Shown: positions 21,222 through 37,094, counted from the stretch's first letter. The stretch is 64,000 nucleotides of DNA from Candidatus Gemmiger excrementavium (GCA_019116485.1 DXBO01000027.1:17373-81372); one strand, 5' to 3'. Made by a program: numbers and translations. Notes: a model not told the origin generated them from the sequence alone.

Positions 21222-22430
21222 TCAGGAGGCAGGTTTCGCCGGGGCGTCCCGGATGGGCGTCCAGTCGGTGGAACCTGCCAGATAGTCCTCAATGGAAATG
21301 ATGGCAAAGTTGCTGACGACATAGGGTTCCGTGCCCACCGCCACCATTACCTGGTCCCGGCCTACCAGCAGTTCCGGCCAACCGTTGGTCCCGGTAATGT
21401 GGGGCATATCGTACACCTGCCCGTCGGCCAAATCATAAATCCACAGGCTGCCCTCGCTGCCACCCATGAGCCAGCGCAGGCTGCCGTTCTGGGTAAAGGT
21501 CCAGGTGCAGCGATTTTCGCCCGGCTTGCCGGGCAGGGGCTGCCAGTCGGTGCCGTCGGCGGCACAGCTTTCCGTCCCGCCGACGATCCCCATCCCCTCC
21601 TCCGTGAACCACTCAAAGTACAGGCGCCCCCCGGCCATGCCCAGCAGAGAATAGCGCTTTTTGCTGCCGTCGGGCTGCTGGATGCCGTAATAGGGCGCTT
21701 GCCAGATCGTTTCCAGTTCGCCGGTGGCCGGGTCATACCAGTCGTATTCCGCCGTGGCATTCTGGCACACCGCTTCGTACTGCTCCCACTCACGGGAATC
21801 CGGCAGCGGCACATCGGTGATCAGGCGCAGCAGCAGGAACCGGTCCTCCCCCACCGCATAGATGCTCATCGTCTGGCTGGGCAGCTGCAGCGGCGTGAGC
21901 GCGCCGGTGGCCAGGTCCAGGCGGGCACCGTCGGTGCGGCTGTCGGGGTAGTTATAGACAAAATCATAGGCGCTGTACTCGTCGGCGTAATCGGGGGCAA
22001 AAGTGTCCCCCAGCGGCAGGACTTCGGCCTCGCCGCCGCTTTGCGGCACCCGGTACATGGCGCCGTTGGCAAACAGGCAGACGCTGTTTTCATAGGGCAC
22101 CACCTTGGGGATTTCCCAGTTCTCCCCTTCCACCGCAAATACCGAACTGCGCAGGGCATCGGCCAGGTCCACTTTCAGCAGCTGGAGAACCGGGTCGCCC
22201 CCCTCCGGCTGGGCAACCGCTGCATTGTACACAGCATCCGCCGTGGATTCCCGATAGCACAGCGCCCGCAGATGCCCCACAGGGAAAGCCGCGGTCTCCC
22301 CGGTGGACTGCGCCGGGGCGGTCTCGGCGGTGGCCGGGTTCGTTTCCGATTCCGGCGTTGTAGATGCCGCCGGGGTGCAGGCCGTCAGGCAAATGACCAG
22401 CAACAGGGCCGGTATCCATTGTGTTTTCAT
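21222..22430 (-). CDS. Lipoprotein of unknown function, paralogue 2 of 3
   Basis: Start taken at MKTQWIPALLLVICLTAC (ATG 22430, AAAGGAG RBS). Lipobox LTAC. Shares EYDWYDPATGELE and DYLAGSTDWTP with paralogue 1. Confidence 0.8.
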   Translation of the reverse strand: MKTQWIPALLLVICLTACTPAASTTPESETNPATAETAPAQSTGETAAFPVGHLRALCYRESTADAVYNAAVAQPEGGDPVLQLLKVDLADALRSSVFAVEGENWEIPKVVPYENSVCLFANGAMYRVPQSGGEAEVLPLGDTFAPDYADEYSAYDFVYNYPDSRTDGARLDLATGALTPLQLPSQTMSIYAVGEDRFLLLRLITDVPLPDSREWEQYEAVCQNATAEYDWYDPATGELETIWQAPYYGIQQPDGSKKRYSLLGMAGGRLYFEWFTEEGMGIVGGTESCAADGTDWQPLPGKPGENRCTWTFTQNGSLRWLMGGSEGSLWIYDLADGQVYDMPHITGTNGWPELLVGRDQVMVAVGTEPYVVSNFAIISIEDYLAGSTDWTPIRDAPAKPAS

Positions 22431-22443
22431 CCGGGTGCTCCTT

Positions 22444-23664
22444 TCAGAACAGGGTTTTGGCCGCTTCACTCTCCACCGGCGTCAGTTCGGCGGTGCCGTT
22501 CAGGTAGTCCTGCGCGTCGGCCAGGGCGTGGGTGATATGGTAGTTGCCCTGGGCGTCCTCATAGCCGGTTTGCAGCAGAACCCGGCCATCCGCCAGGAAG
22601 GTGTCCGGCCAGGCGCTGACAAAGTTCACCGGCTCGTGGAAGGTCCCGGTCTCCAGGTCAAAGACCTGGGCGTCGGTGCCACCATTGCCCACGATCCAGC
22701 GCAGCTGACCGTCCGGCTGGCACAGGGCTGCGTTCCACTCTGGAGTCTGCGTCAGACCGGCCAGGGGCTGCCAGTCCTGCCCTTGCAGCGTGCAGGATTC
22801 CACCCCTGCATCCAGGAGTGTGCCGTCCTCGCCGGGGACAGTCCAGGAGAAATACAGCCGCCCGTCCCGCAGGCCCAGGAAACGGTGCTGTCGTTTGGTG
22901 CCGTCCGCCTGTACCGCCCCGTAATAGGGTTCTTCCATGATTTTTTCCAGTGCGCCGGTGGCGGGGTCGTACCAGTCGTACTCACGGACGGCGTTTTGCA
23001 GAATGGCCGAAAATGCCTCGCCCTCGTTTTCCCGGCCTGGCAGCGGGACCTCAGTATGCAGGCGGCAGAGCAGGAACCGGTCCTCCCCCACCGGCCAGAC
23101 ATCCCAGGTCAGGGCGGGCAGGTCCAGGTCGGTGATCTGCCCGGTAGCCAGGTCCAGGCGCTTTCCCCGGTAGGTGTTTTCTTCCGTTATGAAGGAAAAA
23201 TTGTAGGCGCTGTATTCATCCGCCGCCACGGCGGACAGGAATTCCGCCAGCGGCAGGGTCTTTGGTTCACCGCCGTCCAGGGGAATCCTGTAAAGTACCT
23301 GGTCCGCCACCACGCAGACCGTATCGCCCTGGACGATTACCCCTCCGACTTGCAGGACCGGCTCCTCCCAGGTATAGAGTACCTCTTCCCGGGTGGCGGC
23401 GTAATCCAGTTTCAGCAGATGGACCCGGATCGTGCCGTCCGACATTCTCTCATTGCCGATGCGATACCAGGCGCTGTCGGTTTCGTTCAGATGCCCGTTC
23501 CCCCGCAGGTGCCCCACCGGAAAGGCGTTCTCGGCTGCGGATTCCGCCGCCAAAGCCGTTTCGGCGGTTTCCGTGGCCGGTGCGGGGGCTTCGGATTCCG
23601 GCGCCGGAGTACAGGCTGCCAGACAGACGGCCAGAGCCAACAGGGGTAACAGTATTTTTTTCAT
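22444..23664 (-). CDS. Lipoprotein of unknown function, paralogue 3 of 3
   Basis: 406 aa. MKKILLPLLALAVCLAAC lipobox. Motifs FPVGHL, LYRIPLDGGE, RLDLATGQIT, EYDWYDPATGALE. AAAAGGAG RBS. Confidence 0.8.
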   Translation of the reverse strand: MKKILLPLLALAVCLAACTPAPESEAPAPATETAETALAAESAAENAFPVGHLRGNGHLNETDSAWYRIGNERMSDGTIRVHLLKLDYAATREEVLYTWEEPVLQVGGVIVQGDTVCVVADQVLYRIPLDGGEPKTLPLAEFLSAVAADEYSAYNFSFITEENTYRGKRLDLATGQITDLDLPALTWDVWPVGEDRFLLCRLHTEVPLPGRENEGEAFSAILQNAVREYDWYDPATGALEKIMEEPYYGAVQADGTKRQHRFLGLRDGRLYFSWTVPGEDGTLLDAGVESCTLQGQDWQPLAGLTQTPEWNAALCQPDGQLRWIVGNGGTDAQVFDLETGTFHEPVNFVSAWPDTFLADGRVLLQTGYEDAQGNYHITHALADAQDYLNGTAELTPVESEAAKTLF

Positions 23665-23757
23665 TATTTTGCTCCTTTTTTCAGAGGGTCAACGTGTTTT
23701 ATGGTCCCAGTATGACACCCCTTTGTATCGGAGTTGTACCAAAATCCGGCATTTTGC

Positions 23758-23799
23758 AGAAAAAACGCCGCACCGCAGCATCTCTGCTGCGGTGCGGCT
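23758..23799 (-). terminator. Rho-independent terminator after tRNA-Pro
   Basis: Minus strand: GCCGCACCGCAGCA-GAGA-TGCTGCGGTGCGGC followed by GTTTTTTCT. Confidence 0.8.
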
Positions 23800-23808
23800 G
23801 TAGAAAAG

Positions 23809-23884
23809 TCCGGGTGACAGGATTCGAACCTGCGAAATCTCCTGGTCCCAAACCAGGCGCGATACCAAGCTTCGCCACACCCGG
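23809..23884 (-). tRNA. tRNA-Pro (anticodon UGG)
   Basis: Hand-folded cloverleaf: acceptor CCGGGTG/CACCCGG, D-arm GCGA-AGCTTGGTA-TCGC, anticodon arm CCTGG-TTTGGGA-CCAGG (UGG, G37), T-arm GCAGG-TTCGAAT-CCTGT. No encoded CCA. The variable region appears to be 7 nt. Confidence 0.85.
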
Positions 23885-23909
23885 ATACCGGCAAAGGCTC
23901 GATTTGTTT

Positions 23910-23939
23910 ATTATAATACGCCGGGTACTGCCCCGTCAA
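23910..23939 (-). promoter_or_regulatory. SigA-type promoter of tRNA-Pro
   Basis: Minus strand: TTGACG(23939-23934)-18 nt-TATAAT(23915-23910), about 20 nt upstream of the tRNA 5' end. Confidence 0.6.
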
Positions 23940-23953
23940 GAGGCAGCGCCCTT

Positions 23954-25321
23954 TCAAATGCGGAATGCCGCCGCCTGGTACAGCGCCCCGTCCCGGGGGG
24001 CTTCCATCTGCAGCGCCACCCCGGGCCGGCCGGTGAGAGGGTCCACAATGCCCACCCATAAGGTATAGTCCCCTGCGGGCAGACGGGCAGTATCTTCCAG
24101 CGGCACCCGCAGAACATGGGTGCCCGGCCCCCAGCGGGAGAAGCTGCCTGCCGCCTGGCCGGACCAGACCGTATGGCCGCCGGTGTCCCGCAGTTCCAGC
24201 GCGATGGGCCAGTCGCCGTACAGCGGGGCCAGGCCGGTGTTCTGCCAGATCAGTTCCGCCTCCAGCTTGCCGCTGAGTACCCCGCGCAGTACCCGGCAGC
24301 CCCGTACCCCCAGGGTATAGCCCATCTCGGCCACAAAGGTCTGCAGGTTGTCCGCCGCCGTGCCGGTAAGTTCCCCGCTCTGGGGGGCGTTGGGGCCCAG
24401 AAAAGTGGAGTGGCTGCGGCGCAGCAGGTCCAGTGTGGTGGAAAACTGCCCCGCCGAGAAATACCACCCGCTTTCCTGCCGGGGGGAAAATTCGCCCCCG
24501 GAGGGTGCCCTGTACCAGAAGTCCGGCATGCCGGGCATCCACTCCCCGCTCTGGTCCGAGGTGTAGCCGTTTTCGATCCAGTCCAGCCACTCGTTGTGGG
24601 AATCCGGCAGGCCGAAGGAGTCATTGTACAGCCCCAGTCCCCGGTCCCGGGCCAGGGCGCAGGGGCGGCGCACCAGCAGGGTGTGGGCGTCGAACACATC
24701 CAGATAGTCCTGCACATAGCCGTCGGTGACTGACTGCGGCGGAAAAGGCTCGATGCCCGCATCGGTATCCACATGCCATTCGCCCCAGTGGCCCAGGCTG
24801 CCCAGTTCGACAAAGGCTACCTGGGGGTCGTCGGCATAGCGGGCCCCCAGCGCCGCCAGCAGCCGCCGGTGGGCCGCCTGCAGCACCGGGCTGGTGTAGT
24901 CGGGGCTGAAGCCCTGGCCGTAGTCCCCGTCGTACCAGGTGCCCGCGCCCTCCATCTCGTCGTAAAGCCACTGGGGCAGACCCAGGCGGGCTTGCTCGCC
25001 GGGGGTGTCCAGCACCAGGCGCAGCACCAGCCGCACGCCGTCGGCCCGCCAGCGGGCAAAGTGGCAGCGTTCTTCCAATGCTGCAAAGTCATACTGGCCC
25101 GGCCGGGGTTCCAGTTCATCCCAATAGACCGGGATATAGGCAAAAGCCACCAGCGGGTCCCGGCGGTAGTTCTCGCCCCAGGCCATAAACCCTTTCAGGG
25201 GGTTGGCAGCCGGTTTTTCCCCCGCCGGGATGACGGCATCCGCCAGGGTGAACCGGGCGCGCAGCAGCGCAGCCGCCAACAGCGCCAGGCCCAGCAGCAG
25301 CAACGGCAGCAGTTTTTTCAT
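23954..25321 (-). CDS. Secreted glycoside-hydrolase-like protein (DUF4874/DUF4832-type)
   Basis: 455 aa. Signal peptide MKKLLPLLLLGLALLAAALL. GSLGHWGEWH motif and TIM-barrel-like N-terminal half as I recall for DUF4832 proteins. GGAGGG RBS inside the upstream gene's end, 5-nt gap. Confidence 0.65.
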   Translation of the reverse strand: MKKLLPLLLLGLALLAAALLRARFTLADAVIPAGEKPAANPLKGFMAWGENYRRDPLVAFAYIPVYWDELEPRPGQYDFAALEERCHFARWRADGVRLVLRLVLDTPGEQARLGLPQWLYDEMEGAGTWYDGDYGQGFSPDYTSPVLQAAHRRLLAALGARYADDPQVAFVELGSLGHWGEWHVDTDAGIEPFPPQSVTDGYVQDYLDVFDAHTLLVRRPCALARDRGLGLYNDSFGLPDSHNEWLDWIENGYTSDQSGEWMPGMPDFWYRAPSGGEFSPRQESGWYFSAGQFSTTLDLLRRSHSTFLGPNAPQSGELTGTAADNLQTFVAEMGYTLGVRGCRVLRGVLSGKLEAELIWQNTGLAPLYGDWPIALELRDTGGHTVWSGQAAGSFSRWGPGTHVLRVPLEDTARLPAGDYTLWVGIVDPLTGRPGVALQMEAPRDGALYQAAAFRI

Positions 25322-25326
25322 GGGCG

Positions 25327-25998
25327 TCAGCCCTCCAGATTGCCGCGGTATTCCACCAGCGTCACGTCCTGCACGCCGTCGATGGTCTGCACCGCCTGGG
25401 TAACGTTGAGGTTGTCGGTCTTCAGGGTCAGTTCCATGGTCAGTTCGGTCAGATCCCCTTTGACCACCTTGGATCGGAAATGCCCGGTCTGGGCGCTGAG
25501 CGCCCGGCGGACCGCCTCTTCCACAGCCAGGTCGGAGCGGTAGGTGACGATAAGTACATAGGTGCCTGCCGCCCCCTTGAGGCGCTTGAGAAAAAACAGA
25601 GACAGCGCCACCGCCGCCCAGGCGATGAAGGCGATGGTGTAATACCGGGCGCCGATGGCGATACCTGAGGTGATGGCCCAGAACAAAAACATCAGGTCCA
25701 GGGGATTTTTGACGGCGGTACGGTAGCGCACGATGCTGAGCGCACCCACCATGCCCAGGGAGAGGGTGATATTGGTGCTGATGGTGATGATGATGACCGC
25801 CACCAGCACCGTCATGATGACCAGCGACAGGTTGAGGGCATGGTCGTACACCACCCCTACAAAGGCCCGCCGGTAGACCCAGAAGATGCCCATGCCCACC
25901 ACAAAGGCCACGGCCAGGGTCAGCACCAGGTCAAAGGCGTCGATCTGGGCGGGGAACAGTTCCAGGGCGGATTTTTTGAACAGGTCTTGAAACGTCAT
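25327..25998 (-). CDS. DUF4956-like membrane protein (4 TM helices plus a C-terminal soluble domain)
   Basis: ATG 25998 (MTFQDLFKK) is preceded by GGAGGA. SIVRYRTAVKNPLDLMFLFWAI core. The GTG at 26013 in the ORF track lies within the RBS and was rejected. Confidence 0.7.
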   Translation of the reverse strand: MTFQDLFKKSALELFPAQIDAFDLVLTLAVAFVVGMGIFWVYRRAFVGVVYDHALNLSLVIMTVLVAVIIITISTNITLSLGMVGALSIVRYRTAVKNPLDLMFLFWAITSGIAIGARYYTIAFIAWAAVALSLFFLKRLKGAAGTYVLIVTYRSDLAVEEAVRRALSAQTGHFRSKVVKGDLTELTMELTLKTDNLNVTQAVQTIDGVQDVTLVEYRGNLEG

Positions 25999-26025
25999 AC
26001 AAGATTCCTCCACAACGCAGCGCGT

Positions 26026-26724
26026 TCACCGCAGGATATGGTTCACCCGGTCCACACACAGGCAGAACTTGGATGCCGAGGTCCTGACGAAAGAATACGC
26101 GCTGAAGATACTTTGAATGTACTCCGGCAGAATGCCGGTATATTTGACCTCCAGGATCAGCCGCCCGGGGTCCAGCACATGGTAGGCCGGAGCGGCAGGG
26201 TCGAACAGGTCCTGCTGGGCCGTGATAGCACAGAGGTTGCGGTCAAAGGTGATGCGCACGGTGCCCACGTCGTTGACGAAGGCCTCCCGGTCATAAGCCA
26301 CTGTGACGCAAGGGCGCAGCACCGCGGCCCGGGCGTCCACATAAAACTGCGCGGCCAGCGGCTGGGGCTTGCCCAACAGAAAACCGCAGTCCCCTGCCAA
26401 AAAACGGTCATACTCGGCCCGGGTCAGGGGCACCGCCTGTTTGTGCACACAGGCGCCGTTTTTGTACTTGCATTCCAGGGCAATGTGGGCGTCGGAACCG
26501 TTGTAGATGCGCACCCGGTATTTTTTGCGTACCTGCACTCCCTCCAGCTTCTGGCGGTAGGCGGTGTGATAGAGGTCGTCCAGGTAAAGGCTGCGGATGT
26601 TGTACCCGCCCCCGGCTCCGGCGTGGGCATCGTACCCCATGACCGCCTGCAGCACGCTGCGCAGCTGGCGGTATTCCGCCATGGTCAGTAAGAATTTCAG
26701 TTCCTGACGGTAGGCTGGTTTCAT
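26026..26724 (-). CDS. VTC-domain (CYTH/triphosphate-tunnel, polyphosphate-polymerase-like) protein
   Basis: 232 aa, with no TM segment. N-terminal RQELKFLL and alternating basic/acidic beta-strand pattern (KYRVRIY, LECKYK, LEVKY) typical of tunnel-fold VTC/CYTH domains. The start overlaps the cotH stop by 1 nt (TGATG). Confidence 0.7.
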   Translation of the reverse strand: MKPAYRQELKFLLTMAEYRQLRSVLQAVMGYDAHAGAGGGYNIRSLYLDDLYHTAYRQKLEGVQVRKKYRVRIYNGSDAHIALECKYKNGACVHKQAVPLTRAEYDRFLAGDCGFLLGKPQPLAAQFYVDARAAVLRPCVTVAYDREAFVNDVGTVRITFDRNLCAITAQQDLFDPAAPAYHVLDPGRLILEVKYTGILPEYIQSIFSAYSFVRTSASKFCLCVDRVNHILR

Positions 26725-28472
26725 CAGGGCACCTCCGCCATATCCACACCGGGATAGTAGATATCCTGCACACAGATTTTGTTCATGGCCTGGGCCGTGC
26801 GGCCGTCCTGGGTCTGGGCCGTGACCCGGTAATACCAGGTGCCGGGGGGCACCAGGTCGGAAGGCGCCTGGTAGGCGGTGCTCTCCAGCCCGGCGGCGTC
26901 GATGACCGGCGCGGCCAGGTCGGGGGTGGCCCCCACCGTCAGGCGGTAGGTGATGGGCTGGTTGTCAAAGTCGTAGGCATCTTCCCAGCGGAAGGTGACG
27001 GTATCCCCTTCCCGCAGCGGCTCATACATAAAAAAGGGCATGAGTTCGTGCAGGCTCTGCTGGAACAGGTCATAAGCCTGCTGCAGCTGGTCTCCCAGCC
27101 CGGCCAGAATGGCATCCCGTTCCTCCGGCGTGTTGCCCAGATGGTACAGGTCCGGCATGGCCAGCACAAAGGGGCGTACCACCCCGTCGTAGTCCCGGGC
27201 CAGGGCATTGACGGTATCCGGGTTGATGGTCTGGTACAGTTCCTCCACCTTGTCGGCCAGCTGCTGGCGGTTGCCCGCGTCTTTGAGAAAGCGCTGGTGA
27301 AGCAGCACGCCCCAGTAGTTGGCCACCCCGTGTTCCCACCCGCCGTAGCTGGGGGTCAGGCCCTCCAGGTCGTCCTCCTGCCAGTGGAGGATGTTGTCGC
27401 CGTCCCAGGGGATGAAATACCACTTGTCACCGTTGAGGGGACTGTAGAGATAGAAATTCTGCACGGTGGTATCGCTGTTGCCGGTAAGGATGTTGTAGGC
27501 CAGCCAGGTCAGGTAGTTGTCCCGGTCTATGTAAGTGCCCACGATCTCGTTGATATCCACGCTTTTGTCGGCGATGCGGTTGACCAGGTCGATGAGTTTC
27601 TGGTTGTCCTGGCGTCCCTTGCAGCTGAGGATCGTCTCAAAGGCAGCCTCATCAAAAGCGGGATCATCGAAATTTTTGAGGGCGTCGGACATCTCGAAAT
27701 TGAAGCTGATGGCCTTGTACAGATACCCGGTCTGGTCCAGCCCATGGTTGGCCAGGTATTTTTTGGTGGGCACCTCGGCCTGGGTGAACAGGCCGTAGTC
27801 GCTGAAGGTGGTCTCCCCCGCTGTTTCGTCCTTGACATACAGGTGGACGAACTGGGTGCGCAGGCTGGAGATATCCGCCACCGGGCGCAGCAGGTCGAAG
27901 TAGAGTTTGTTGCGCAGGCGGGTGGCGTCAAAGGCGTGTTTGTTCAGGGCGATGTTGCTCTGTCCCCGCCACAGCCCGGCCTCGTCGTCCAGCGCCAGTT
28001 TGTAGGATTTCTGGGGCCGTACCGAGGAAGAGTTGCCCCGTACCCGGATGGTGGCGTTGGCGTGGTCCTGGCCGTAGCCCAGCATGCCGGGCAGCGGGCC
28101 GGTCTCGTCCCCCACCTGCACGATAGCCCGGGCGTAAATGTCGTTTTCCACATGGCTGTCCTCCACAAAGCGGACGGCGCTGTTCACCTCGGCAAAGCTG
28201 TGGTCGGTGTCGGAACCGGCGTCGCCCCGCTGTACCGTGACGTAAAAACAGACCACGCTCAACGGGTCATCGGCGCTGTAGACTGTCTTGTCCTCGGCCA
28301 TGCCCAGGGCATCAATGTCCCCGGCGGCCAGTTCGGCGGTGCCGGGGGAAACTTCCGGGGCAATACTTTCCGCCGGGTCGGCGGCGGGCCGCCACAGCAG
28401 CGCCGCCGCCAGGGCCAGCCCAACCGCAGCCACAAAGAATACAGCTTCCAGTTTATTGGTCATCTTCTTCAC
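26724..28472 (-). CDS. cotH: CotH-family atypical kinase-like protein, membrane-anchored, with a C-terminal FN3-like domain
   Basis: N-terminal anchor LEAVFFVAAVGLALAAALLW. The long central region is of the size and composition annotated as CotH in Firmicutes. C-terminus TVTFRWEDAYDFDNQPITYRL...WYYRVTAQTQDG is FN3-like. GTG 28472 lies 6 nt after AAAGGAGGA (alternative ATG 28463). Confidence 0.7.
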   Translation of the reverse strand: MKKMTNKLEAVFFVAAVGLALAAALLWRPAADPAESIAPEVSPGTAELAAGDIDALGMAEDKTVYSADDPLSVVCFYVTVQRGDAGSDTDHSFAEVNSAVRFVEDSHVENDIYARAIVQVGDETGPLPGMLGYGQDHANATIRVRGNSSSVRPQKSYKLALDDEAGLWRGQSNIALNKHAFDATRLRNKLYFDLLRPVADISSLRTQFVHLYVKDETAGETTFSDYGLFTQAEVPTKKYLANHGLDQTGYLYKAISFNFEMSDALKNFDDPAFDEAAFETILSCKGRQDNQKLIDLVNRIADKSVDINEIVGTYIDRDNYLTWLAYNILTGNSDTTVQNFYLYSPLNGDKWYFIPWDGDNILHWQEDDLEGLTPSYGGWEHGVANYWGVLLHQRFLKDAGNRQQLADKVEELYQTINPDTVNALARDYDGVVRPFVLAMPDLYHLGNTPEERDAILAGLGDQLQQAYDLFQQSLHELMPFFMYEPLREGDTVTFRWEDAYDFDNQPITYRLTVGATPDLAAPVIDAAGLESTAYQAPSDLVPPGTWYYRVTAQTQDGRTAQAMNKICVQDIYYPGVDMAEVP

Positions 28473-29937
28473 GCAGGGTCCTCCTTTGGGCGGATTCCCG
28501 CTCCGCACCGGCGAAGCGTTCCTGAATACGGCTGAGTACACCCTGCTGGGGCTGGGCAAACAGGGGTTGCTCACAGAACACATGGTATTCCAGCTCGTTG
28601 AGATAGCGGCGGATGCGCAGCATCAGGTACAGGGCCGTGGCCGCCCCCGCCAGCAGAAAGCCGATGCCCCACCAGCCGCTGTCCAGGGGCAGGGTGGCCA
28701 GTGAAAGCGCCGTGCTCAGCCCCAGGAACAGCGCGGATGCCCGCAGCGCCCCCCGGCGGTCATCAAAGTACAGCAGTATCACGGTGCCGCACTTGACAAA
28801 TCCGTACAGGCAGTAGCCGCAGCACAACAGCCGGTAGGTGCCGGCCATGCGCTCGTCCAGGCCCACGGTCTGCAAAAAATTGCCCACAAAAGTCACCGCC
28901 GCCACCGTGACGATGAGCTGGACCTCCATCATATGGGCCAGTTCGGTATACAGCACGGTACAAAGTTCCTGCTTGGCGGCGCGTATTTCCTCCAGACGGC
29001 CACCGTAGAGTACCGCGTCGAAGTAGGCCCGGTTTTTCACCTCGAACCGGGTCTCCAGCCCCACCACGAACTGCACCAGCATGGGCAGGATGGTCAGCGT
29101 GGCAAAAAAGCAGGGCACATCGTACCGGGTGCAGAACACCCCGGTGGGGTAGATTTTATCCCGGTAAGCACTGGCCCAGAACACAAAGTTGTGGGTATAC
29201 AGACCCAGGGCCAGGCACAGCCCGGTGGCCACCAGCACGCGGTAGCGTTCCAGCGCGGGAAAGAACACCAGCAAATCCCACCGGCCGGGGGGATAGTGGG
29301 CCAGCAGTTGGGCCATGTACAAAAACAGCATCAGCGTAAAGCCCAGAGCCGCCCCCCACAAAGCGCCGGGCAGCGGTGCCACCCCCAGCCCCAGCAGCAA
29401 TGCGGCCAGGCCCAGCGCCCCCGCTACCCCGGCCACAAAACCCAACAGCACATATTCGTACCGTTTGATGGCGGACAGAAAGGCGATCTGTATCCAAAGG
29501 ATGAGCAGCACGCAGAACAACGTGAGCACCGCGCCCCGCACCGCCCAGTCCACCGGCAGGGTGAGCAGGTAGAGCAGCGCTGCCGGGGCGCCTGCCGCCA
29601 ACAGAAAAAACACCACACCGAAAAAGGCGGGCAGCACGTCTTGCAAGCGCTCCTGGTAAATACAGTCCGAGATAAAACGGTTGACGAACAACAGCACCGT
29701 GTTGGACAGGATCAGAGAAAAGATCATGACATAGGTCATGAGGAAAAGGAACTCTTCCCGGGTGCGGTAGACCGCGCCGTCCCGGGCCATCAGGGCCCGC
29801 AGGGTCAGCAGCAATACGATCATGAGCACCATGGGGCCCTCGGTGACCACGGCGGTCAGGGAGTAGCCCCGCAGGGCGCCCAGCACGCTGTCACCGCCCC
29901 GGAATACCTTTTTTAAGGCAAAGCCGACGCCTGCCAT
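28453..29937 (-). CDS. pelG: Pel exopolysaccharide transporter PelG
   Basis: From MAGVGFALKKVFRGGDSVLGALRGYSLTAVVTEGPMVLMIV, the characteristic PelG N-terminus, with about 12 TM helices. The 120-codon Arg/Gly-rich upstream extension in the ORF track was rejected. Confidence 0.85.
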   Translation of the reverse strand: MAGVGFALKKVFRGGDSVLGALRGYSLTAVVTEGPMVLMIVLLLTLRALMARDGAVYRTREEFLFLMTYVMIFSLILSNTVLLFVNRFISDCIYQERLQDVLPAFFGVVFFLLAAGAPAALLYLLTLPVDWAVRGAVLTLFCVLLILWIQIAFLSAIKRYEYVLLGFVAGVAGALGLAALLLGLGVAPLPGALWGAALGFTLMLFLYMAQLLAHYPPGRWDLLVFFPALERYRVLVATGLCLALGLYTHNFVFWASAYRDKIYPTGVFCTRYDVPCFFATLTILPMLVQFVVGLETRFEVKNRAYFDAVLYGGRLEEIRAAKQELCTVLYTELAHMMEVQLIVTVAAVTFVGNFLQTVGLDERMAGTYRLLCCGYCLYGFVKCGTVILLYFDDRRGALRASALFLGLSTALSLATLPLDSGWWGIGFLLAGAATALYLMLRIRRYLNELEYHVFCEQPLFAQPQQGVLSRIQERFAGAERESAQRRTLREEDDQ

Positions 29938-31364
29938 GTGTGGTTCACCTCCCCGGTTTTGGGGGCGGCACCGCTGTACAAAGCGCGGTAGGCCGCCAGA
30001 AAATCTTCCACCTGGTAGCTGTGGGCCACCCGGCGGTAACCGTTTTGCCCCAGCGCCCGCATGTGGGCGGCGCTGCGGCCAATGTCCAGAATCCCTTCGG
30101 CCACCCGTTCCGGGTTCATCACCGGCACCACCACCCCCGCCGGTCCGAAATCGTCGCCCCCGCCGCAGATGATCTCCCGGCAGGCGCCCACGTTGGTGGC
30201 CAGCACCGGGCGGCGGGCGGCCATGGCTTCCAGCAGAACAAAGGGTTGTCCTTCCGAAATGCTGGTCAAAATCACCATGTCCAGCTGGGGCAGCCACTGG
30301 GTCACGTCAGCCCGGCCCACAAACTCGATATCCGGGCAGCCCAGCCGCTCGATGAGGGCCACACATTCCTCGTAATACCCAGGGTCTTCGTCACAGGGGC
30401 CGATGATGGTCAGCCGGGCGTCCCTGCGTTTGGCTTTGACCAGGTTGAAGGCATAGATCATGGTCTTGACATCCTTGATGGGCACCACCCGCAGCACCGC
30501 CCCGATATGCAGGGCGTGCTTACCCCGGGCGATGGGCGGCACCGCGGCAAAACGCTGCACGTCGATGCCGTTGGGGATGACCCGGCAGCGGTAGGCCTCG
30601 GCCCCCAGGCCGATCTGCAGGTCCCGCGCCCCCGAAAACAGCGACAATATCTGGTCGGCCTGGCTGTAGGCCGCCAGGCTCAGCGCCCGGAAGAAGTGAA
30701 TCCAGGTACGTTTGAAGTAGACAGGCACCCACTCTGCCTTGAGAATTTCCTCCTCCCGTTCCCGGGTATAGATGCCGTGTTCGGTGACAAAAAAGGGGTT
30801 GCCGGTGGCCCAGCGGAACCGCGCCCCCAGCAGCCCCGCATACCCGGTGGCCACCGCGTGGTAAAGGTCTGCTTCCGGCACAGGGCAGCGCAGCAGGTTC
30901 AGCGCCGGGATCAGCATGGAGCGCAGCGTCCAGAACAGGTCCTTGAAGGGCATGTGGCGTGCCTCCCCTTCGGCCAGGCGCTGCACGATGTGCAGGAACG
31001 CCGGAGAGGTAAGGAAATCGTTGGCGCTGCAGGGGTGTTCGCCCCCAAACAGGGCAAACAGCGCAGGCCAGTCCGGGTTGGCGCCCCGCAAAAGGTCCAG
31101 TACGGCGTTCTGCTGGGCAGGGGTCAGGCGCACGGCGGCGCCGGTGCCCGGGTGGGTCAGGTATTCATCCAGAAAATATTCCCGCAGTTCCCGCAGGTTG
31201 GGGGGCAACTCATATTTGTAGACGCCGCGCTGCTTCTGCTCGGCGCCGATGGAGACGATGATGAACTCGTGTTCAGGCATCCGGCGCATCAGCATCTGCA
31301 CCCAGGCAGACACGCCGCCCACCACATAGGGGTAACACCCTTCCACGATCAGGCAAATTCTCAT
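29913..31364 (-). CDS. pelF: Pel glycosyltransferase PelF (DUF3492 + GT4)
   Basis: MRICLIVEGCYPYVVGGVSAWV N-terminus and a GT4 C-terminal half (SISEGQPFVLLEAMA, an EX7E-type motif). 483 aa. Confidence 0.88.
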   Translation of the reverse strand: MRICLIVEGCYPYVVGGVSAWVQMLMRRMPEHEFIIVSIGAEQKQRGVYKYELPPNLRELREYFLDEYLTHPGTGAAVRLTPAQQNAVLDLLRGANPDWPALFALFGGEHPCSANDFLTSPAFLHIVQRLAEGEARHMPFKDLFWTLRSMLIPALNLLRCPVPEADLYHAVATGYAGLLGARFRWATGNPFFVTEHGIYTREREEEILKAEWVPVYFKRTWIHFFRALSLAAYSQADQILSLFSGARDLQIGLGAEAYRCRVIPNGIDVQRFAAVPPIARGKHALHIGAVLRVVPIKDVKTMIYAFNLVKAKRRDARLTIIGPCDEDPGYYEECVALIERLGCPDIEFVGRADVTQWLPQLDMVILTSISEGQPFVLLEAMAARRPVLATNVGACREIICGGGDDFGPAGVVVPVMNPERVAEGILDIGRSAAHMRALGQNGYRRVAHSYQVEDFLAAYRALYSGAAPKTGEVNHTWQASALP

Positions 31365-31365
31365 G

Positions 31366-33225
31366 CTACACCAGCTTTACTGTAAAATTGGGGCTTTTGA
31401 CGGTGAGAAGGTAGTACCCTTCCCCCTCGCCGCCGCTGATGCGCCGGATGGCGCAGTTTTCGTCCACCGCCCGGGGAGTGCGGTCGGTTTTCAGGTAGAA
31501 ACAGGTCTCGCCGCAGAAATTTTCGATGCTGCCGCGGATGGCGTCGGTACCGATCTCCAGATGGGGCTGCGCGGATTCCGCAATGCGCAGGGCGTCGGCA
31601 GCCTCGGTGGCAGAGAGGGACCGCAGGAAGGGAAAGTCCGTGTGGACTTGCTGCATCCAGGCGCAGTAACTGCGGTAGAGCTGCTCCCAGGTCTGGCCTT
31701 TGCCCCGCTCCAGGTCAAAAATATCGTCAGGATGGATAAAATGAGAGAAAACACCGTACAGCCCCAGGGCACTGTAGGCGGAAAGCTGTTCAAAGTCATC
31801 GGGGGCCATGCCCGCGGTGACCCGGGGAAATTCCACAACGCCGTCCGCCGCCAGGGAAAAGTCCTGCACATAGACTTCCCCTTCCTCCTCCTCGTTGGTG
31901 TAAATGCCGGAAATCACGCTGAGGTCCGGCAGGGCGGCGGCCACAGCCCGGCGGCCCTCGGCACTCAAGTAGTTGGAAGGCGGCACATAGCAGCGCAGCG
32001 CCACGCCGGGGAACAATTCCGCCGTGATTTCTCCCAGCCGCTGCAGTGAGGCGGTCATGGCCGCCTCGTCGGCCCAGGGGCGGTACTGCATAACAGCAGG
32101 GGTGCCCCCTGCCAGCGTCAGGGGCTGGTGGTTGTACCCGTGGGCGCCCATCTCGTAACCGTTTTTCAGCAGGCTGGCGCCGAAGTAGCGCTCGGTGGCG
32201 GATTCGGCATAGACCAGTTTATCGGGGATGACCTCGTTGTTGTAGGTGGCCACAAACAGCCCGGTGTAGATATCGCCGTAGGCTTTGGCTACCTGCAGCA
32301 TGTCGGGCCACCAGATGTCCCGGTAAAATTCCTTGGCGGAGCGGTTGTATTCCGCCCGCACCACGTCGCTTTCGCTCTCGTACTGGGGTGAGGGGAAATC
32401 GTCGATGAACAGGCACAGGGCGTTGATGACAGGGTAAAGGGTGGTGTCGAACAGCAGGTTGACGCACCCCGCCGCCATGCCGCGCCAGAAATCCCCGCTG
32501 CCGCAGGTGCAGTTGAACACCGCCACCCGGCCCTGGCCGCAGTCATACCGCCAGATCAGGGGGCTTTGGCGCCCGGCGGCATCCCGCCCCCAGGCATAGA
32601 CCACGGCATCCTCTTCCAGCGTGGCGGAAAGCATTACATCGGACAGGCTTTCCCCTGTAAAGCTGCGGCCGGTGATGCCGGGAACCACATCGCCGCAAAA
32701 TTCTATGGTGTCATAGGGCAGGTAGTCCCCATAGTCCGCAATACCGAAACTGCGGTAGCTCAGGGCAAACTGGGGGCCCAGGGATTCCGGCACCGTGCCC
32801 ACCAGCAGCCGGCCGCCTTCCGACACATAGCGCAGCAGCCGGGCGGCGGATTCGGTCATTTCGGCCTCCCAGTAGGCAGAGGCCAAAATCACCAGGTCAT
32901 AGTCGCTGTAGCTGACCGACTCGGTCCGGGACAGTTCCAGGGAATCCGCCCGGATGCGCAGATGCTGCAGGGCGATGCGCAGATTTTTTTCGTATTTGAC
33001 GGAGGCCTCATATCCGGGGCTGTACAGGATCAGCGCCCGGGGGCGGGTATCGCCGGTGACGGACAGGGCCGCCGCCGCGGGCTGGTCCAGCAGCGTGACC
33101 GAGGCCCGTACCCGGTCCCCGCCCCAGCGGCCCAGCTGCAGACCGTGGTTGCTCAACAGGATGAGCAGCGCCAGCCCCAGGCAGCCAGCCAGCAGCAGGG
33201 CCAGTTTTCTATAGGTCTTGTTCAC
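31366..33225 (-). CDS. pelA: DUF2194-type protein, the Gram-positive PelA deacetylase-like component (PelA_DA)
   Basis: Start taken at GTG 33225 (VNKTYRKLALLLAGCLGLALLIL, TM anchor; GAGGGA RBS). The C-terminal half has a polysaccharide-deacetylase-like region (GYEMGAHGYNHQPL, HFIHPDD). The upstream 176 codons in the ORF track are shadow-like. Confidence 0.72.
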   Translation of the reverse strand: MNKTYRKLALLLAGCLGLALLILLSNHGLQLGRWGGDRVRASVTLLDQPAAAALSVTGDTRPRALILYSPGYEASVKYEKNLRIALQHLRIRADSLELSRTESVSYSDYDLVILASAYWEAEMTESAARLLRYVSEGGRLLVGTVPESLGPQFALSYRSFGIADYGDYLPYDTIEFCGDVVPGITGRSFTGESLSDVMLSATLEEDAVVYAWGRDAAGRQSPLIWRYDCGQGRVAVFNCTCGSGDFWRGMAAGCVNLLFDTTLYPVINALCLFIDDFPSPQYESESDVVRAEYNRSAKEFYRDIWWPDMLQVAKAYGDIYTGLFVATYNNEVIPDKLVYAESATERYFGASLLKNGYEMGAHGYNHQPLTLAGGTPAVMQYRPWADEAAMTASLQRLGEITAELFPGVALRCYVPPSNYLSAEGRRAVAAALPDLSVISGIYTNEEEEGEVYVQDFSLAADGVVEFPRVTAGMAPDDFEQLSAYSALGLYGVFSHFIHPDDIFDLERGKGQTWEQLYRSYCAWMQQVHTDFPFLRSLSATEAADALRIAESAQPHLEIGTDAIRGSIENFCGETCFYLKTDRTPRAVDENCAIRRISGGEGEGYYLLTVKSPNFTVKLV

Positions 33226-34132
33226 TTGATCCCTCGTTTCTGAACGCCCGGACCAGGTCCAGGGTCTTGGTGGTAAGCAGCACGGGGCGTTGGGGCAGGG
33301 TGCCCAGGAACCCCTGCAGCCCCGCGGCGTCCCGCGCCTGGATATACAGTTCCAGCCTGTCCCGCACGGCCTGTTCGCTGTGGGGGTACAGGGCCAGGTA
33401 ACGCTCGCAAACCTGCCGGGCTTTGACCAGGTCCCCCTGCTGCAGTTCCAGCCGTACCCGATGGTGCAGATACCGGCTGCGGGGCTTTTTGTCCCGCAGC
33501 AGCCGCCCTGACAGCGCCCGGTAGCGGGCCGTATAGCGGCGGCGGCTGTAGGCGTCGTAGAGGTCGCAGGTGGCGGCACGGTAGAGCAGCTGTTCCCAGG
33601 CAGCCGCAGCATCGAGGTTGGCGGGGTCCCGCTGCCACCGGGTCTGGGCTGCTGCCAGCTGCTGCTGTACCTTGCGGCGCAGTTCCATGATAGCCACGCT
33701 GGCATAGTGGGAAGTTTCGCCGTCCTCATTGTCCAGGGCACGGCGCAGCACATCCAGGTAGGCCAGGGGGTCCTCGGCGTTGAGCAGTTCCATGACCAAG
33801 GCTCGGCGGTACTCTTTGTCTGAAAGGGTCAGCGCTTCGTCCATGGGGACCCGGTCAGCCTCCCGGGCAGTATCGGCCCGGTGCAGCCGGCGGGGATCAT
33901 CCCAGCGATAGTCCGCCCCCAGGCACAGCCCGGTGTAGCCGTCCCGCCGCCGCGCCGCAGCCGCGCTGTCACAAAACCAGACGAACAGCGGCCCCGCCAC
34001 CGGCAGCGCCAGTGATGCCGCCAGGCACAACGCCCCCTTGTGGGCACTGCCGGACCGCCGGGCCAGCACCCAGGCATAAAACCCGCAGAAAAACAGATAC
34101 AGTGCCAGCAGGGCACCCGTGATCCAGTTCAT
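33209..34132 (-). CDS. pelE: PelE-like protein (two N-terminal TM helices plus a helical-repeat domain)
   Basis: ATG 34132 forms an ATGA overlap with the pelD stop. MNWITGALLALYLFFCGFYAWVLA and a second TM helix, then an Arg/Leu/Ala-rich helical region. Assignment by position and architecture. Confidence 0.6.
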   Translation of the reverse strand: MNWITGALLALYLFFCGFYAWVLARRSGSAHKGALCLAASLALPVAGPLFVWFCDSAAAARRRDGYTGLCLGADYRWDDPRRLHRADTAREADRVPMDEALTLSDKEYRRALVMELLNAEDPLAYLDVLRRALDNEDGETSHYASVAIMELRRKVQQQLAAAQTRWQRDPANLDAAAAWEQLLYRAATCDLYDAYSRRRYTARYRALSGRLLRDKKPRSRYLHHRVRLELQQGDLVKARQVCERYLALYPHSEQAVRDRLELYIQARDAAGLQGFLGTLPQRPVLLTTKTLDLVRAFRNEGSSEQDL

Positions 34133-36264
34133 GAAGGCACGACCTCCCAGTGGAAACCTGCCCGGGCGAACCGGACAGCCAGTTCCTCCGCCTGTTCGGG
34201 CGGGGTGTTGGTCAGGATGACGGCGTACCCGCCGGTCTCGTCCTGCCCCATGTAATCCGTCTTGCGGATCATGCCGCCCAGGGCCCGGCCCACGGCGGCG
34301 GCATCCAGCCCGGCAGGGGGCTGCACCCGGCCCAGTGTAAAGCGGCACAGAGCCCGGCCCCCTTCGCCCCGCAGCAAGGCCAGCTTTTCGGCAAAGGCTT
34401 CCGGTTTGAGCAGGGCGGTGCCGGCCACGCAGCGCTCGGACCGGCGGGCCTTTTCATAGGAAAGGGCCCGCAACAGGTTTTTTTCCAGCAAACTGACCAC
34501 CACCCGGAACAGGTCCTGGTAGTAGGTGGTGAACTTGTCCGGCGCGATGTCGTAAGCCGCCACAAAGGCGTAGGGCTGGCCGTCGTACCACACAGGGGCA
34601 GCCAGGTCGGGATGGTCGGCCAGCAGGCCGGTGTTGACGAACAGGCCCCCCCGGCGGAACGCCAGCCGCAGCCGTTCCAGTTCCGCCAGGCCCAGGACGG
34701 CAGGGGCGCTGCCCTCCAGCGCCGGGGAACAGGTCAGCAGCCGGGCGCAGCCCGCCGGCACATCCACATAGTAGACAGCGGCTTTTTCACATTCCAGCAC
34801 CTGCTGCACCACCCCGATCCCCCGCTGCAGCAGCTGTTCCGGCTGCTGCGCGTCCAGTTCCAGCACGATGCGGTACAGGTCCCCGAAGCTGTGTTTGGTG
34901 TTGAGCAGCTGTTGCTGCAGCCGGTTTTTCAGGTCCTGGGTCTCGGTCTGCAGGGCTTCCACCCGGCGGTATTTCTCCTCCAGCAGGTCGTAGCGGCGGC
35001 GCAGGGCGTCGGTGTCTTCCCGCCGGCGGTTGACGATGTACCCCAGTACCGACCCGGTGACGGCATACACTACAAAGGGCAGCCAGGTGTCCACGCTGTA
35101 GAGCAGGTAGGCGGTGTCCACATAGGAGGCCGCCAGACTGTACAGGTAGGAGAGGCTGGCCAGCACCACGGCCAGCACCCCCATCTCACCGCCGTAGCAG
35201 CAGGCGGTCAGGGCCACAAACATCAGCCGGATGTCCACATATTTCAGGTCGGACACATCCTTGCCGAAACGCAGCAGCAGCGATGTGGCCGCAAAGAGCA
35301 GCAGCGTCTCCCCCAGCGTGCGCAGCGGTGCGTGCCGGGCCAGCCAGGCGCGCAGCCGGGCCAGCGGGACCCGGACGGGCCGGGGTGCACCGGAGGGGGC
35401 CGACGCAGGCATTGCCAGGGCCCGGCCCAGTGTATCGGCCCCGTCCTGCGCAAAAAGATGGGTCGGTATCCAGCCGGTGGCCAGCTGCAAAGGGCGCGGG
35501 TCAAAGTCCCCGGGGGGCAGTGTGGGGCGCTGTGCCTGCCAGGTCACGTCCGGTTCGCACCCGGCGACCCGGCCCAGGCAGGCAAAGTATTCTGCCAGCG
35601 GCACAGGATGCCCTGTCACCACCAGGTAACGGCCCGCCGCCCGGACCAGGACCAGGTCATACAGTGCTGCGGCGGCGTCCTCGGCATGGATGACATCCAC
35701 GCAGTCCCCGGCACTGCAGGGGCAGGTCACCGGTTCTCCCCGTGCCATGCGGGCCAGCAGGGCGCCGGTGTAGCCCATATCCCCCGGCGGCACCGGTGCG
35801 TACACATAGCCCAGCCGGGCGATGAGCAGCGGCAGGCCGAAATGGCTCTGGTGAGCCTGGCAGTACAGTTCCCCGGCAGCCAGGTCGGCCTGCAGCGGGG
35901 TCAGCGCCCCGCCGTACCCCAGTTCCACCGAGGACAGGTAGACAAAGGTCTGCACCCGATGTTCCCGCAGGGCCTCCAGCAGGGCAGCCAGCGCGGGGAT
36001 GCAGCTCTCATAAGCGGCGCCGGGGGCATTTTCCCGCAGGGCCCCGGTCAGAAACACCACTGTATCGATACGGTTGGATGTAAGTATCGGGGCGATCTGC
36101 TGTGCCCCAAAGGTTCCGCGGTAAATGCTGCCCCGCAGCCGCGGGTGCCACAGGGCACGCTGGTCTTCCCCGGTGATCCAGCAGGCGGTGTGCCCCTCGC
36201 TCAGAAAGCGATTGGCCAGGTAAGCGCCGGCCAGGTCCCACCTGCCCATGAACAAGACATTCAT
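34129..36264 (-). CDS. pelD: PelD-like c-di-GMP receptor: degenerate SDR domain, TM helices, GAF-like region and degenerate GGDEF with an intact RxxD site
   Basis: 711 aa. The N-terminus resembles epimerases but has GRWDLAG in place of GxxGxxG and YCQAH in place of YxxxK. 4 TM helices in the middle. C-terminal RKTD-YMGQ-DETGGY-AVIL aligns to RxxD-x4-GGDEF-AVIL. GGAGGAGAGGG RBS. Confidence 0.75.
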   Translation of the reverse strand: MNVLFMGRWDLAGAYLANRFLSEGHTACWITGEDQRALWHPRLRGSIYRGTFGAQQIAPILTSNRIDTVVFLTGALRENAPGAAYESCIPALAALLEALREHRVQTFVYLSSVELGYGGALTPLQADLAAGELYCQAHQSHFGLPLLIARLGYVYAPVPPGDMGYTGALLARMARGEPVTCPCSAGDCVDVIHAEDAAAALYDLVLVRAAGRYLVVTGHPVPLAEYFACLGRVAGCEPDVTWQAQRPTLPPGDFDPRPLQLATGWIPTHLFAQDGADTLGRALAMPASAPSGAPRPVRVPLARLRAWLARHAPLRTLGETLLLFAATSLLLRFGKDVSDLKYVDIRLMFVALTACCYGGEMGVLAVVLASLSYLYSLAASYVDTAYLLYSVDTWLPFVVYAVTGSVLGYIVNRRREDTDALRRRYDLLEEKYRRVEALQTETQDLKNRLQQQLLNTKHSFGDLYRIVLELDAQQPEQLLQRGIGVVQQVLECEKAAVYYVDVPAGCARLLTCSPALEGSAPAVLGLAELERLRLAFRRGGLFVNTGLLADHPDLAAPVWYDGQPYAFVAAYDIAPDKFTTYYQDLFRVVVSLLEKNLLRALSYEKARRSERCVAGTALLKPEAFAEKLALLRGEGGRALCRFTLGRVQPPAGLDAAAVGRALGGMIRKTDYMGQDETGGYAVILTNTPPEQAEELAVRFARAGFHWEVVPS

Positions 36265-36378
36265 TTCCCTCTCCTCCGTTTTTTTCTGCTGCGCCGTGCC
36301 CCCACCAGGGGCCGGTCACCTACACTGTAGCGCCTGCAGGGCGAGAAACCTGCCGAAATGCCGCGCCCCCGCACTTTA

Positions 36379-36393
36379 TGTGACCAAATCACA
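36379..36393. promoter_or_regulatory. TGTGA-N5-TCACA palindrome in the pelD/trxA divergent region (candidate Crp/Fnr-family site)
   Basis: TGTGACCAAATCACA. Its centre lies about 41 bp upstream of the start predicted from a TATACT -10 at 36415-36420. Confidence 0.35.
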
Positions 36394-36454
36394 GAAAAGC
36401 CGCCGCGGACGGCGTATACTATAGGCACAACGAACAACAAAGGAGGACACAACG

Positions 36455-36769
36455 ATGTCTGCATTGCATATCAACAAAGCCAATTTCAACGAACAGGTGC
36501 TTCAGTCCGACAAACCGGTGCTGCTGGATTTCTGGGCCAGCTGGTGCGGCCCCTGCCGCATGGTGGCGCCTCTGGTGGAGGAACTGGCCGCCGAACACAA
36601 CGAATTCAAGGTAGGCAAGATCAACGTGGATGAAGAACCCGAACTGGCCGCCCGGTTCCAGATCATGAGCATCCCCACCCTGGTGGTCATCAAGAACGGC
36701 CAGGTGGTGCAGCGGGCCACCGGCGCCCGGCCCAAGAGCCAGATTCTGGCCCTGGTCCAGGGGGTGTGA
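36455..36769 (+). CDS. trxA: Thioredoxin
   Basis: 104 aa. [10 protein letters not shown] active site. AAAGGAGGA RBS. Confidence 0.95.
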
Positions 36770-36772
36770 GCC

Positions 36773-37093
36773 ATGGGGCTGCTGGAATTTCTGCGGGGGC
36801 CGGATATGGATGCCGGTGTGGCCCAATGCCGCCAGACCCCCGGCGCGGTGCTGCTGGACGTGCGCACGCCGGAAGAATACCGGGGCGGGCATATTCCCGG
36901 CAGCCGCAACCTGCCGCTGGACGCACTGCAGGGCGTGACGGACGCCGTACCGGACAAGGGTACGCCGCTGTTTGTCTATTGCCGCAGCGGCGCCCGGTCC
37001 GGGCAAGCCGTACGGCTGCTGGGGCAGATGGGCTACACCCGGGTGACAAACATCGGCGGGATCATGCAGTATCACGGAAAGGTGGAACGATAA
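36773..37093 (+). CDS. Single-domain rhodanese (sulfurtransferase)
   Basis: 106 aa. LLDVRTPEEYRGGHIPGS and active-site loop YCRSGARS. Confidence 0.85.
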   Translation: MGLLEFLRGPDMDAGVAQCRQTPGAVLLDVRTPEEYRGGHIPGSRNLPLDALQGVTDAVPDKGTPLFVYCRSGARSGQAVRLLGQMGYTRVTNIGGIMQYHGKVER

Positions 37094-37094
37094 G

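Follow-up and report, generated by a model that had tools for sequence, protein, structure and literature searches.

Loci for production of the Pel polysaccharide have been described in several forms. In Pseudomonas aeruginosa, the pelABCDEFG genes encode, in addition to PelD, PelE, PelF and PelG, a PelA protein with two activities and the outer-membrane parts PelB and PelC. The published operon of Bacillus cereus ATCC 10987 consists of pelDEA_DAFG alone, with none of the four downstream genes discussed below, and its hydrolase is encoded separately and divergently; the B. cereus PelD comprises four membrane helices, a GAF domain and a GGDEF domain, no short-chain dehydrogenase/reductase (SDR) domain being listed (PMC7112168, PMC12345266 and the preprint of the latter), and binds cyclic di-GMP (c-di-GMP) (PMC12345266). 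In streptococcal and clostridial species, cotH and the genes for a poly-phosphate polymerase, a DUF4956 protein and a DUF4832 protein are contiguous with pelDEA_DAFG (Whitfield et al. 2020, PMC7112168, text and S4 Fig), and the presence of this accessory set is tied to an additional epimerase domain at the N-terminus of PelD (PMC7112168). Here we analyze a stretch of 64,000 nucleotides (hereafter, the window) from Candidatus Gemmiger excrementavium, a member of the Oscillospiraceae (GCA_019116485.1 DXBO01000027.1:17373-81372), in which nine contiguous open reading frames (ORFs) on the minus strand, spanning positions 23954-36264, encode a PelD-E-A(DA)-F-G set followed by CotH, VTC, DUF4956 and DUF4832 proteins. 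Five proteins encoded in the window are identical to NCBI entries for a MAG (metagenome-assembled genome) of this species, with accessions in sequence between HIZ47502 and HIZ47511 on a 209-kb contig. Very probably, this locus is a Gram-positive Pel operon with an accessory CotH/VTC/DUF4956 trio and a DUF4832 gene, the core of which works as in the systems already studied. The original prediction, made from the sequence of the window, held that no described Pel locus includes the four downstream genes; this is wrong, as Whitfield et al. 2020 (PMC7112168) describe exactly that set. Thus, the architecture was already known: it was reported in 2020 and put to the test, in part, in 2025. The locus is an ordinary member of that class, to which it adds one uncultured gut Oscillospiraceae species, so that its own weight is small.

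The correspondence with the streptococcal and clostridial class (PMC7112168; S. intermedius SIR_1591-1594, PMC12345266) covers all nine families, their order and their contiguity, and extends to the degenerate N-terminal SDR domain of PelD, the N-terminal anchor and C-terminal beta domain of CotH, the membrane region and ACT-like domain of the DUF4956 protein, and the signal peptide and glycosidase-like barrel of the DUF4832 protein. The PelD of S. intermedius is described in the preprint as devoid of a GGDEF domain, whereas the protein encoded here keeps a GAF domain and a degenerate GGDEF domain with an RxxD motif, a combination described in the preprint of PMC12345266 for Bifidobacterium. 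The host differs as well, being a chicken-gut Oscillospiraceae MAG. With the B. cereus operon, the locus shares the order of the core genes and the GAF and GGDEF domains of PelD. PelD, PelF and PelG and, tentatively, the PelE-like protein are homologous to their P. aeruginosa namesakes; in contrast to the P. aeruginosa system, PelB and PelC are missing here, and the two activities of PelA are split between the DUF2194 and DUF4832 proteins.

The nine genes and their products

A Pfam search of the ORFs agreed with all nine family assignments that had been made for the locus (Table 1), in the case of PelE through weak TPR matches, with that of PelF being reinforced by an NCBIfam equivalog, and the positions of the ORFs together with their Pfam families confirmed the pelD-E-A(DA)-F-G order. 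The junctions, each of which was recomputed from the sequence, are tight and largely overlapping, as had been claimed. Thus, pelD and pelE overlap by 4 nucleotides (ATGA), pelE and the DUF2194 gene by 17, pelF and pelG by 25, and pelG and cotH by 20; the DUF2194 gene and pelF are separated by a single nucleotide (TAG-C-ATG), cotH and the VTC gene have 1 nucleotide in common (TGATG), and 5 nucleotides lie between the DUF4956 and DUF4832 genes. The gap between the VTC and DUF4956 genes is 27 nucleotides if translation of the latter starts at the TTG at 25998, yielding a protein of 223 amino acids, or 12 nucleotides if it starts at the first GTG, at 26013, yielding 228 amino acids. The TTG is the likelier start because it is preceded by GGAGG and because a length of 223 amino acids agrees with the gene calls in relatives (P0121, L001). 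Terminator-like hairpins were not found at any junction of the nine-gene cluster. Judging from the sequence only, the genes would be co-transcribed, with translational coupling between pelG and cotH.

Table 1. Genes of the Pel cluster and neighboring features in the window
Feature	Position	Strand	Evidence or description
pelD, long form, 711 aa	34129..36264	-	Pfam Epimerase and weak DUF4118, GAF
pelE-like gene, 307 aa	33209..34132	-	Two hydrophobic helices, weak TPR, conserved position
pelA(DA), DUF2194, 619 aa	31366..33225	-	Pfam DUF2194, E 6e-112
pelF, GT4 glycosyltransferase, 483 aa	29913..31364	-	NCBIfam PelF equivalog; Pfam DUF3492 and Glycos_transf_1
pelG, polytopic membrane exporter-like, 494 aa	28453..29937	-	Pfam PelG PF16933, E 5e-114
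cotH, kinase-like, 582 aa	26724..28472	-	Pfam CotH, E 2e-56
VTC-domain protein, 232 aa	26026..26724	-	Pfam VTC, E 9.5e-35
DUF4956 membrane protein, 223 aa	25327..25998 (TTG start)	-	Pfam DUF4956
DUF4832 protein, 455 aa	23954..25321	-	Pfam DUF4832, E 7e-11; Glyco_hydro_42, weak
Intergenic region 5' of pelD	36265..36454	-	Between pelD and the divergent thioredoxin gene
Thioredoxin gene	36455-36769	+	Divergent from pelD
tRNA-Pro(TGG) gene	23808-23884	-	Starts 70 nt after the DUF4832 stop
Promoter-like site ahead of tRNA-Pro	23939..23910		TTGACG-18-TATAAT, near-consensus
Strong intrinsic-terminator-like hairpin	23767..23798	-	14-pair stem, 11 G-C pairs, then GTTTTTTCTG
Predicted lipoproteins, three tandem paralogs, ~400 aa	22444-23664, 21222-22469, 19998-21203	-	Lipobox Cys near the N-terminus

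PelD consists of a degenerate N-terminal SDR/epimerase domain, a membrane region, a GAF domain and a degenerate GGDEF domain with an RxxD motif (R667-K-T-D670). The N-terminal domain (Pfam Epimerase, residues 11-202, E 6.5e-11) is the extra epimerase domain that accompanies the accessory set in the published loci, here in a degenerate form: the GxxGxxG motif was not found in this domain and, in the alignment with the epimerase 2p5u, Leu124 and Leu128 occupy the positions of the catalytic tyrosine and lysine. The AlphaFold2 (AF2) model of residues 430-711, with a mean model confidence (pLDDT) of 85, has the P. aeruginosa PelD GAF-GGDEF fold as its top structural match, and all eight best Foldseek matches in the PDB are to that protein (E 3e-9 to 1e-6). 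Across 22 long-form PelD homologs, residues R667, D670, G673, G678 and R698 do not vary. The invariance of R667-x-x-D670 and R698, which, in keeping with the structures of PelD, we take to be the residues that bind c-di-GMP, fits a c-di-GMP site, and control by this nucleotide through the predicted site is probably retained in this locus. By length, two classes of PelD homologs can be told apart, namely, proteins of ~711 amino acids with the C-terminal GGDEF-like domain and proteins of ~600 amino acids that do not have it; many of the closest relatives have the shorter form, with which the tblastn results for the Gemmiger loci agree.

The remaining core proteins are recognizable to varying degrees. 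The PelE-like protein contains two N-terminal hydrophobic segments (residues 6-24 and 35-53) and a TPR-like C-terminus, for which the matches to TPR_14 and TPR_19 both fall under the Pfam cutoff; the place of its gene between pelD and the DUF2194 gene is kept in relatives. The DUF2194 protein matches positions 34-578 of the 582 in the Pfam model, with a weak match to DUF2334 as well, and carries an N-terminal hydrophobic segment (residues 8-26) that would serve as an anchor; it is predicted to be the extracytoplasmic Pel deacetylase. PelF, the cytoplasmic glycosyltransferase, scores 364 bits against the NCBIfam PelF equivalog NF038011 (cutoff 100) and matches Pfam DUF3492 with an E-value of 4e-74, and the identical protein in NCBI, HIZ47505.1, is already named PelF; among the nine proteins, PelF was the only one named by NCBIfam. 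PelG matches PF16933 over its full length and contains many hydrophobic segments.

The first of the accessory proteins, CotH, is similar to the B. cereus CotH 5jd9 (E 4e-13), with N-x-D334, N339 and PWDGD (D357, D359) aligned to NFD, N and PWDYD, respectively. In the light of the CotH structure, we take D334, N339, D357 and D359 to have catalytic or metal-binding roles. The protein starts with a hydrophobic segment (residues 8-26) and ends with a beta-rich domain, and is predicted to be a membrane-anchored or secreted, outward-facing, kinase-like protein. At the N-terminus, nine of the ten CotH proteins that were checked, from both pel and non-pel loci, carry a hydrophobic signal, anchor or lipobox; in the tenth (L038b), the start is probably mis-assigned.

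The VTC protein matches positions 2-232 of the 235 in the Pfam model, contains no hydrophobic segment, and is identical to a protein named in NCBI as polyphosphate polymerase domain-containing protein. Invariant in 12 homologs are R6, E8, K10, R44, R66, K68, R70, R72, E84, K86, K88, R146, E147, R157, E192 and K194. These features suggest a soluble, cytoplasmic, polyphosphate-polymerase-like triphosphate-tunnel enzyme. The protein resembles the yeast VTC complex (Vtc4) in having the triphosphate-tunnel domain of the Pfam VTC family and in being paired with a membrane component. Unlike the yeast protein, the protein of 232 amino acids is the VTC domain alone, with neither an SPX domain nor a membrane domain of the DUF202 type, and its partner is the MgtC-like DUF4956 protein; yeast Vtc4 is a polyphosphate polymerase, and for the bacterial VTC-domain protein polyphosphate synthesis is a prediction. 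The exact VTC sequence sits in a 90% protein cluster the representative of which is a CotH of 582 amino acids (P0333); that protein is 99% identical to the CotH encoded in the window and has no similarity to the VTC protein, so this clustering is a database artefact.

For the DUF4956 protein, the AF2 model (pLDDT 72.5) consists of a short N-terminal helix, five helices and a C-terminal ACT-like domain. In Foldseek searches, the C-terminus matched ACT domains, including the C-terminal domain of MgtC 2lqj, with E-values of 2e-4 to 7e-4, and the membrane region had no structural match in the PDB. Pfam MgtC was not returned for this protein, and the assignment of its membrane domain as MgtC-like is taken from PMC12345266. 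In most related loci, the DUF4956 protein shows the highest identity of the nine. The DUF4832 protein carries an N-terminal hydrophobic segment (residues 4-22), apparently a signal peptide, followed by a TIM-barrel, glycoside-hydrolase-like domain and DUF4832; its matches in the PDB were marginal and confined to beta-galactosidases. It is predicted to be the Pel hydrolase.

Conservation of the cluster and of the CotH/VTC/DUF4956 trio

The alignment of the VTC proteins was used to scan one genome per species, the best 80 of the 505 VTC relatives were kept as loci (hereafter designated by L numbers), and these were searched by tblastn with the nine proteins encoded in the window. The gene order from pelD through the DUF4956 gene recurs in nearly every locus with enough flanking sequence, so that, as the original prediction had anticipated, the linkage of pel genes with cotH and the VTC and DUF4956 genes is kept in nearly all informative loci of these 80 species-level genomes. 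The loci with the conserved order belong to Oscillospiraceae (the closest being those of Gemmiger and Subdoligranulum), Lachnospiraceae, Christensenellaceae and Coriobacteriia, and the genes flanking the cluster vary from locus to locus. The junctions are conserved as well: of the 74 loci containing both pelG and cotH, 69 have the homology-projected N-terminus of cotH no more than 60 nucleotides from the pelG stop (median, -8 nucleotides), and wherever tblastn detected both a VTC and a DUF4956 gene (84 loci), the former directly precedes the latter (median gap, 14 nucleotides). The DUF4832 protein had no tblastn match in about a dozen loci holding pel genes, in agreement with the remark in PMC12345266 that DUF4832 behaves independently.

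Several individual loci merit a comment. Those of the Coriobacteriia (Collinsella, Atopobium and Coriobacteriaceae; L027, L043, L045, L047, L048 and L068) carry pel-plus-trio clusters related to the ones in Clostridia, and therefore the cluster spans two phyla; L045, on a short contig, shows the VTC, DUF4956 and DUF4832 genes only. In a MAG labeled Bacteroides thetaiotaomicron (L070, JAWZDV010000052.1), the full nine-gene cluster is present, its products being 31-61% identical to those of the window; a binning error or a transfer is more likely here than a native Bacteroides locus. Some pel loci contain tandem cotH genes, in two or three copies, between pelG and a single pair of VTC and DUF4956 genes (L038, 4041-9927; L058, 6265-9969; L065, 6440-9963; L081, 5998-9861).

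The CotH/VTC/DUF4956 trio also occurs in the absence of pel genes (L042, L044, L071, L086 [NZ_CP043029], L087 [NZ_CP059541], L088 and L089), contrary to PMC12345266, according to which these three genes were not found in synteny outside pel. Two rumen Lachnospiraceae MAGs (L042 and L044) have the order CotH-VTC-DUF4956, followed in L042 by ruvX and RNase J, and a third (L071) has PLD-VTC-DUF4956-CotH. Each of the four plasmid-collection records with a VTC relative contains the full trio. In the Pseudobutyrivibrio xylanivorans plasmid pNP95, it lies within a cluster of GT2, GT4, acyltransferase and pyruvyl-transferase genes; a Planococcus maritimus plasmid has the order VTC-DUF4956-CotH-hypothetical-HEAT-glycosyltransferase, and NELoc-2 of C. 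perfringens has the same layout (PMC2879425); the E. faecalis plasmid record LR962858 has the genes of a two-component system interspersed with those of the trio; and Nonomuraea gerenzanensis encodes VTC, DUF4956 and CotH. The non-pel trios of NELoc-2, Planococcus maritimus and pNP95 are made up of the same three adjacent families as in the window, again with an N-terminal hydrophobic segment in CotH; they differ in that the order may be VTC-DUF4956-CotH and in that they adjoin other glycosyltransferase systems, either a HEAT-repeat protein with a glycosyltransferase or the GT2/GT4/acyltransferase/pyruvyl-transferase cluster. The trio is thus a separable accessory module found by several kinds of polysaccharide loci, and, in pel and non-pel contexts alike, its proteins are likely to be split among the cytoplasm, the membrane and the outside of the cell. 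To the best of our reading, the occurrence of the trio outside pel is the point that goes beyond both Pel papers, and we consider it a modest residual lead.

Possible roles of CotH, VTC and DUF4956

By analogy with the studied systems, PelF would use UDP-sugar to polymerize a chain rich in N-acetylgalactosamine on the inner side of the membrane, and a membrane complex of PelD, PelE and PelG would export it. The GAF and degenerate GGDEF domains of PelD, with the RxxD motif, probably bind c-di-GMP and so turn synthesis on, the epimerase-like N-terminal domain presumably being catalytically dead. Outside the cell, the DUF2194 protein would deacetylate part of the polymer, and the DUF4832 glycosidase would cut or release it. 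As a separable accessory module, CotH, VTC and DUF4956 would tune aggregation and the quantity of Pel, with a soluble VTC in the cytoplasm, an MgtC-like DUF4956 protein with an ACT domain in the membrane and a kinase-like CotH beyond it. In the reading that we prefer, VTC and DUF4956 would jointly handle phosphate or polyphosphate at the membrane and thereby support the action of CotH on a target at the surface or in the matrix.

In S. intermedius, all four accessory genes have been deleted one by one (mBio 2025, PMC12345266). The DUF4832 protein, SIR_1591, is an active hydrolase and disrupts Pel-dependent aggregates, deletion of the DUF4956 gene results in more Pel and deletion of cotH in less, and each of the latter two deletions cuts aggregation in artificial sputum medium (ASM) by >50% (PMC12345266). 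Together with the conserved synteny, these phenotypes bear out the earlier suggestion that the two halves of the locus form one conserved unit. A mere chance association, in this genome, of the pel genes with the four genes that follow them is, accordingly, exceedingly improbable: the same order and tight junctions are found in dozens of species, which belong to two phyla and differ in the genes flanking the cluster, and the published deletion phenotypes (PMC12345266) point the same way. The only possible hint of such a chance association is an excess of weak terminator-like pattern matches (29 in positions 22500-37500, against 11 expected from shuffles), but within the cluster these all lie in coding sequence, several of them in pelG and the DUF4956 gene, and most are short-stemmed; we reject chance adjacency as effectively refuted by synteny.

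Certain observations weigh against the scheme outlined above. Production of Pel by this organism is a prediction from homology, and the identity of PelE rests on the position of its gene, two putative helices and the sub-threshold TPR matches. The VTC profile had no match among PDB sequences at E-values up to 1, the solved Vtc4 included, and so the tunnel residues could not be placed on the yeast protein. One locus (L051) encodes VTC and DUF4956, with no CotH within about 12 kb. Above all, deletion of the VTC gene in S. intermedius caused no aggregation phenotype, and deletions of CotH and DUF4956 shift the level of Pel in opposite directions (PMC12345266). Both results argue against a strict dependence of CotH on VTC, and the opposite effects are accounted for by regulation no less well than by a simple linear pathway.

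What, then, do the three proteins do for Pel biofilms, which affect streptococcal aggregation and infection? One possible answer, although a rather doubtful one, is that CotH is a protein kinase that phosphorylates Pel proteins or a regulator, as proposed in PMC7112168, with VTC and DUF4956 only adjusting the phosphate or ATP status in the manner of Salmonella MgtC. The opposite shifts in Pel level (PMC12345266) are to be expected of a regulatory circuit, the ACT domain of DUF4956 is of a ligand-sensing type and resembles the C-terminus of MgtC, and the two-component system interleaved with the E. faecalis trio would be in keeping with regulation. However, CotH is predicted to face outward, away from PelF and the cytoplasmic domains of PelD, and a Pel-specific target is unlikely given that the trio also occurs alone or with unrelated polysaccharide clusters. 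The other answer, to which we would assign less credence still, is an export line in which VTC makes polyphosphate and DUF4956 passes it out of the cell, as a phosphoryl donor for CotH or as an anionic cross-linker of cationic, deacetylated Pel. In its favor are the split of the trio among cytoplasm, membrane and outside in pel and non-pel contexts, the invariable adjacency of VTC and DUF4956, in the four plasmid-collection records as well, and the duplication of CotH while VTC and DUF4956 stay single. The yeast VTC couples polyphosphate synthesis to translocation across the membrane, and we know of no obvious supply of ATP for an extracytoplasmic kinase. Nevertheless, DUF4956 is unrelated to the membrane domain of the yeast VTC, and its membrane part has no match in the PDB; CotH proteins are not known to use polyphosphate, and the literature searched yielded nothing on CotH with phosphorylation of polysaccharides or with polyphosphate beyond the two Pel papers; and the lack of a phenotype upon deletion of the S. 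intermedius VTC gene (PMC12345266) is not what an export line would lead one to expect.

The free-standing trio and the apparent distribution of its products across the two sides of the membrane narrow the search to a general function in surface phosphorylation or polyphosphate, away from a Pel-specific regulator. It is tempting to speculate, with an equally low degree of confidence as for the export line, that the trio is a portable, membrane-spanning phosphorylation module that attaches to different surface-polysaccharide systems, with VTC and DUF4956 supplying phosphoryl groups, for instance as exported polyphosphate, and an outward-facing CotH phosphorylating the polysaccharide or matrix proteins.

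Flanking features

Upstream of pelD, the neighbors on the plus strand are, according to Pfam, the divergent thioredoxin gene and a gene for a pyridine-nucleotide disulphide oxidoreductase, and the operon promoter presumably sits in the intergenic region between pelD and the thioredoxin gene. GGAGG is located 8 nucleotides ahead of the pelD ATG. No Rfam family matched the pelD leader of 190 nucleotides above noise, and the stability of its predicted fold does not exceed that of shuffled sequences (z = 0.22), so a riboswitch or attenuator was rejected; in the search of the whole window against Rfam at the gathering score, tRNA-Pro was the sole match.

Downstream of the cluster, the three paralogous predicted lipoproteins show 39-41% mutual identity and have no Pfam match; as none of the related pel loci contains a match to them either, they were dropped as candidate members of the cluster. 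The tRNA-Pro gene, which is preceded by a near-consensus promoter-like site (Table 1), appears to be incidental to the cluster because it is not conserved in relatives: in 13 related loci, the cluster is not followed by it, and a tRNA-Thr in L016 is the sole tRNA there. No hairpin comparable to the one that follows the tRNA-Pro gene was found between the DUF4832 stop and that gene. The hairpin after the tRNA-Pro gene is the only strong terminator, the first one downstream of the cluster, and read-through transcripts probably end there.

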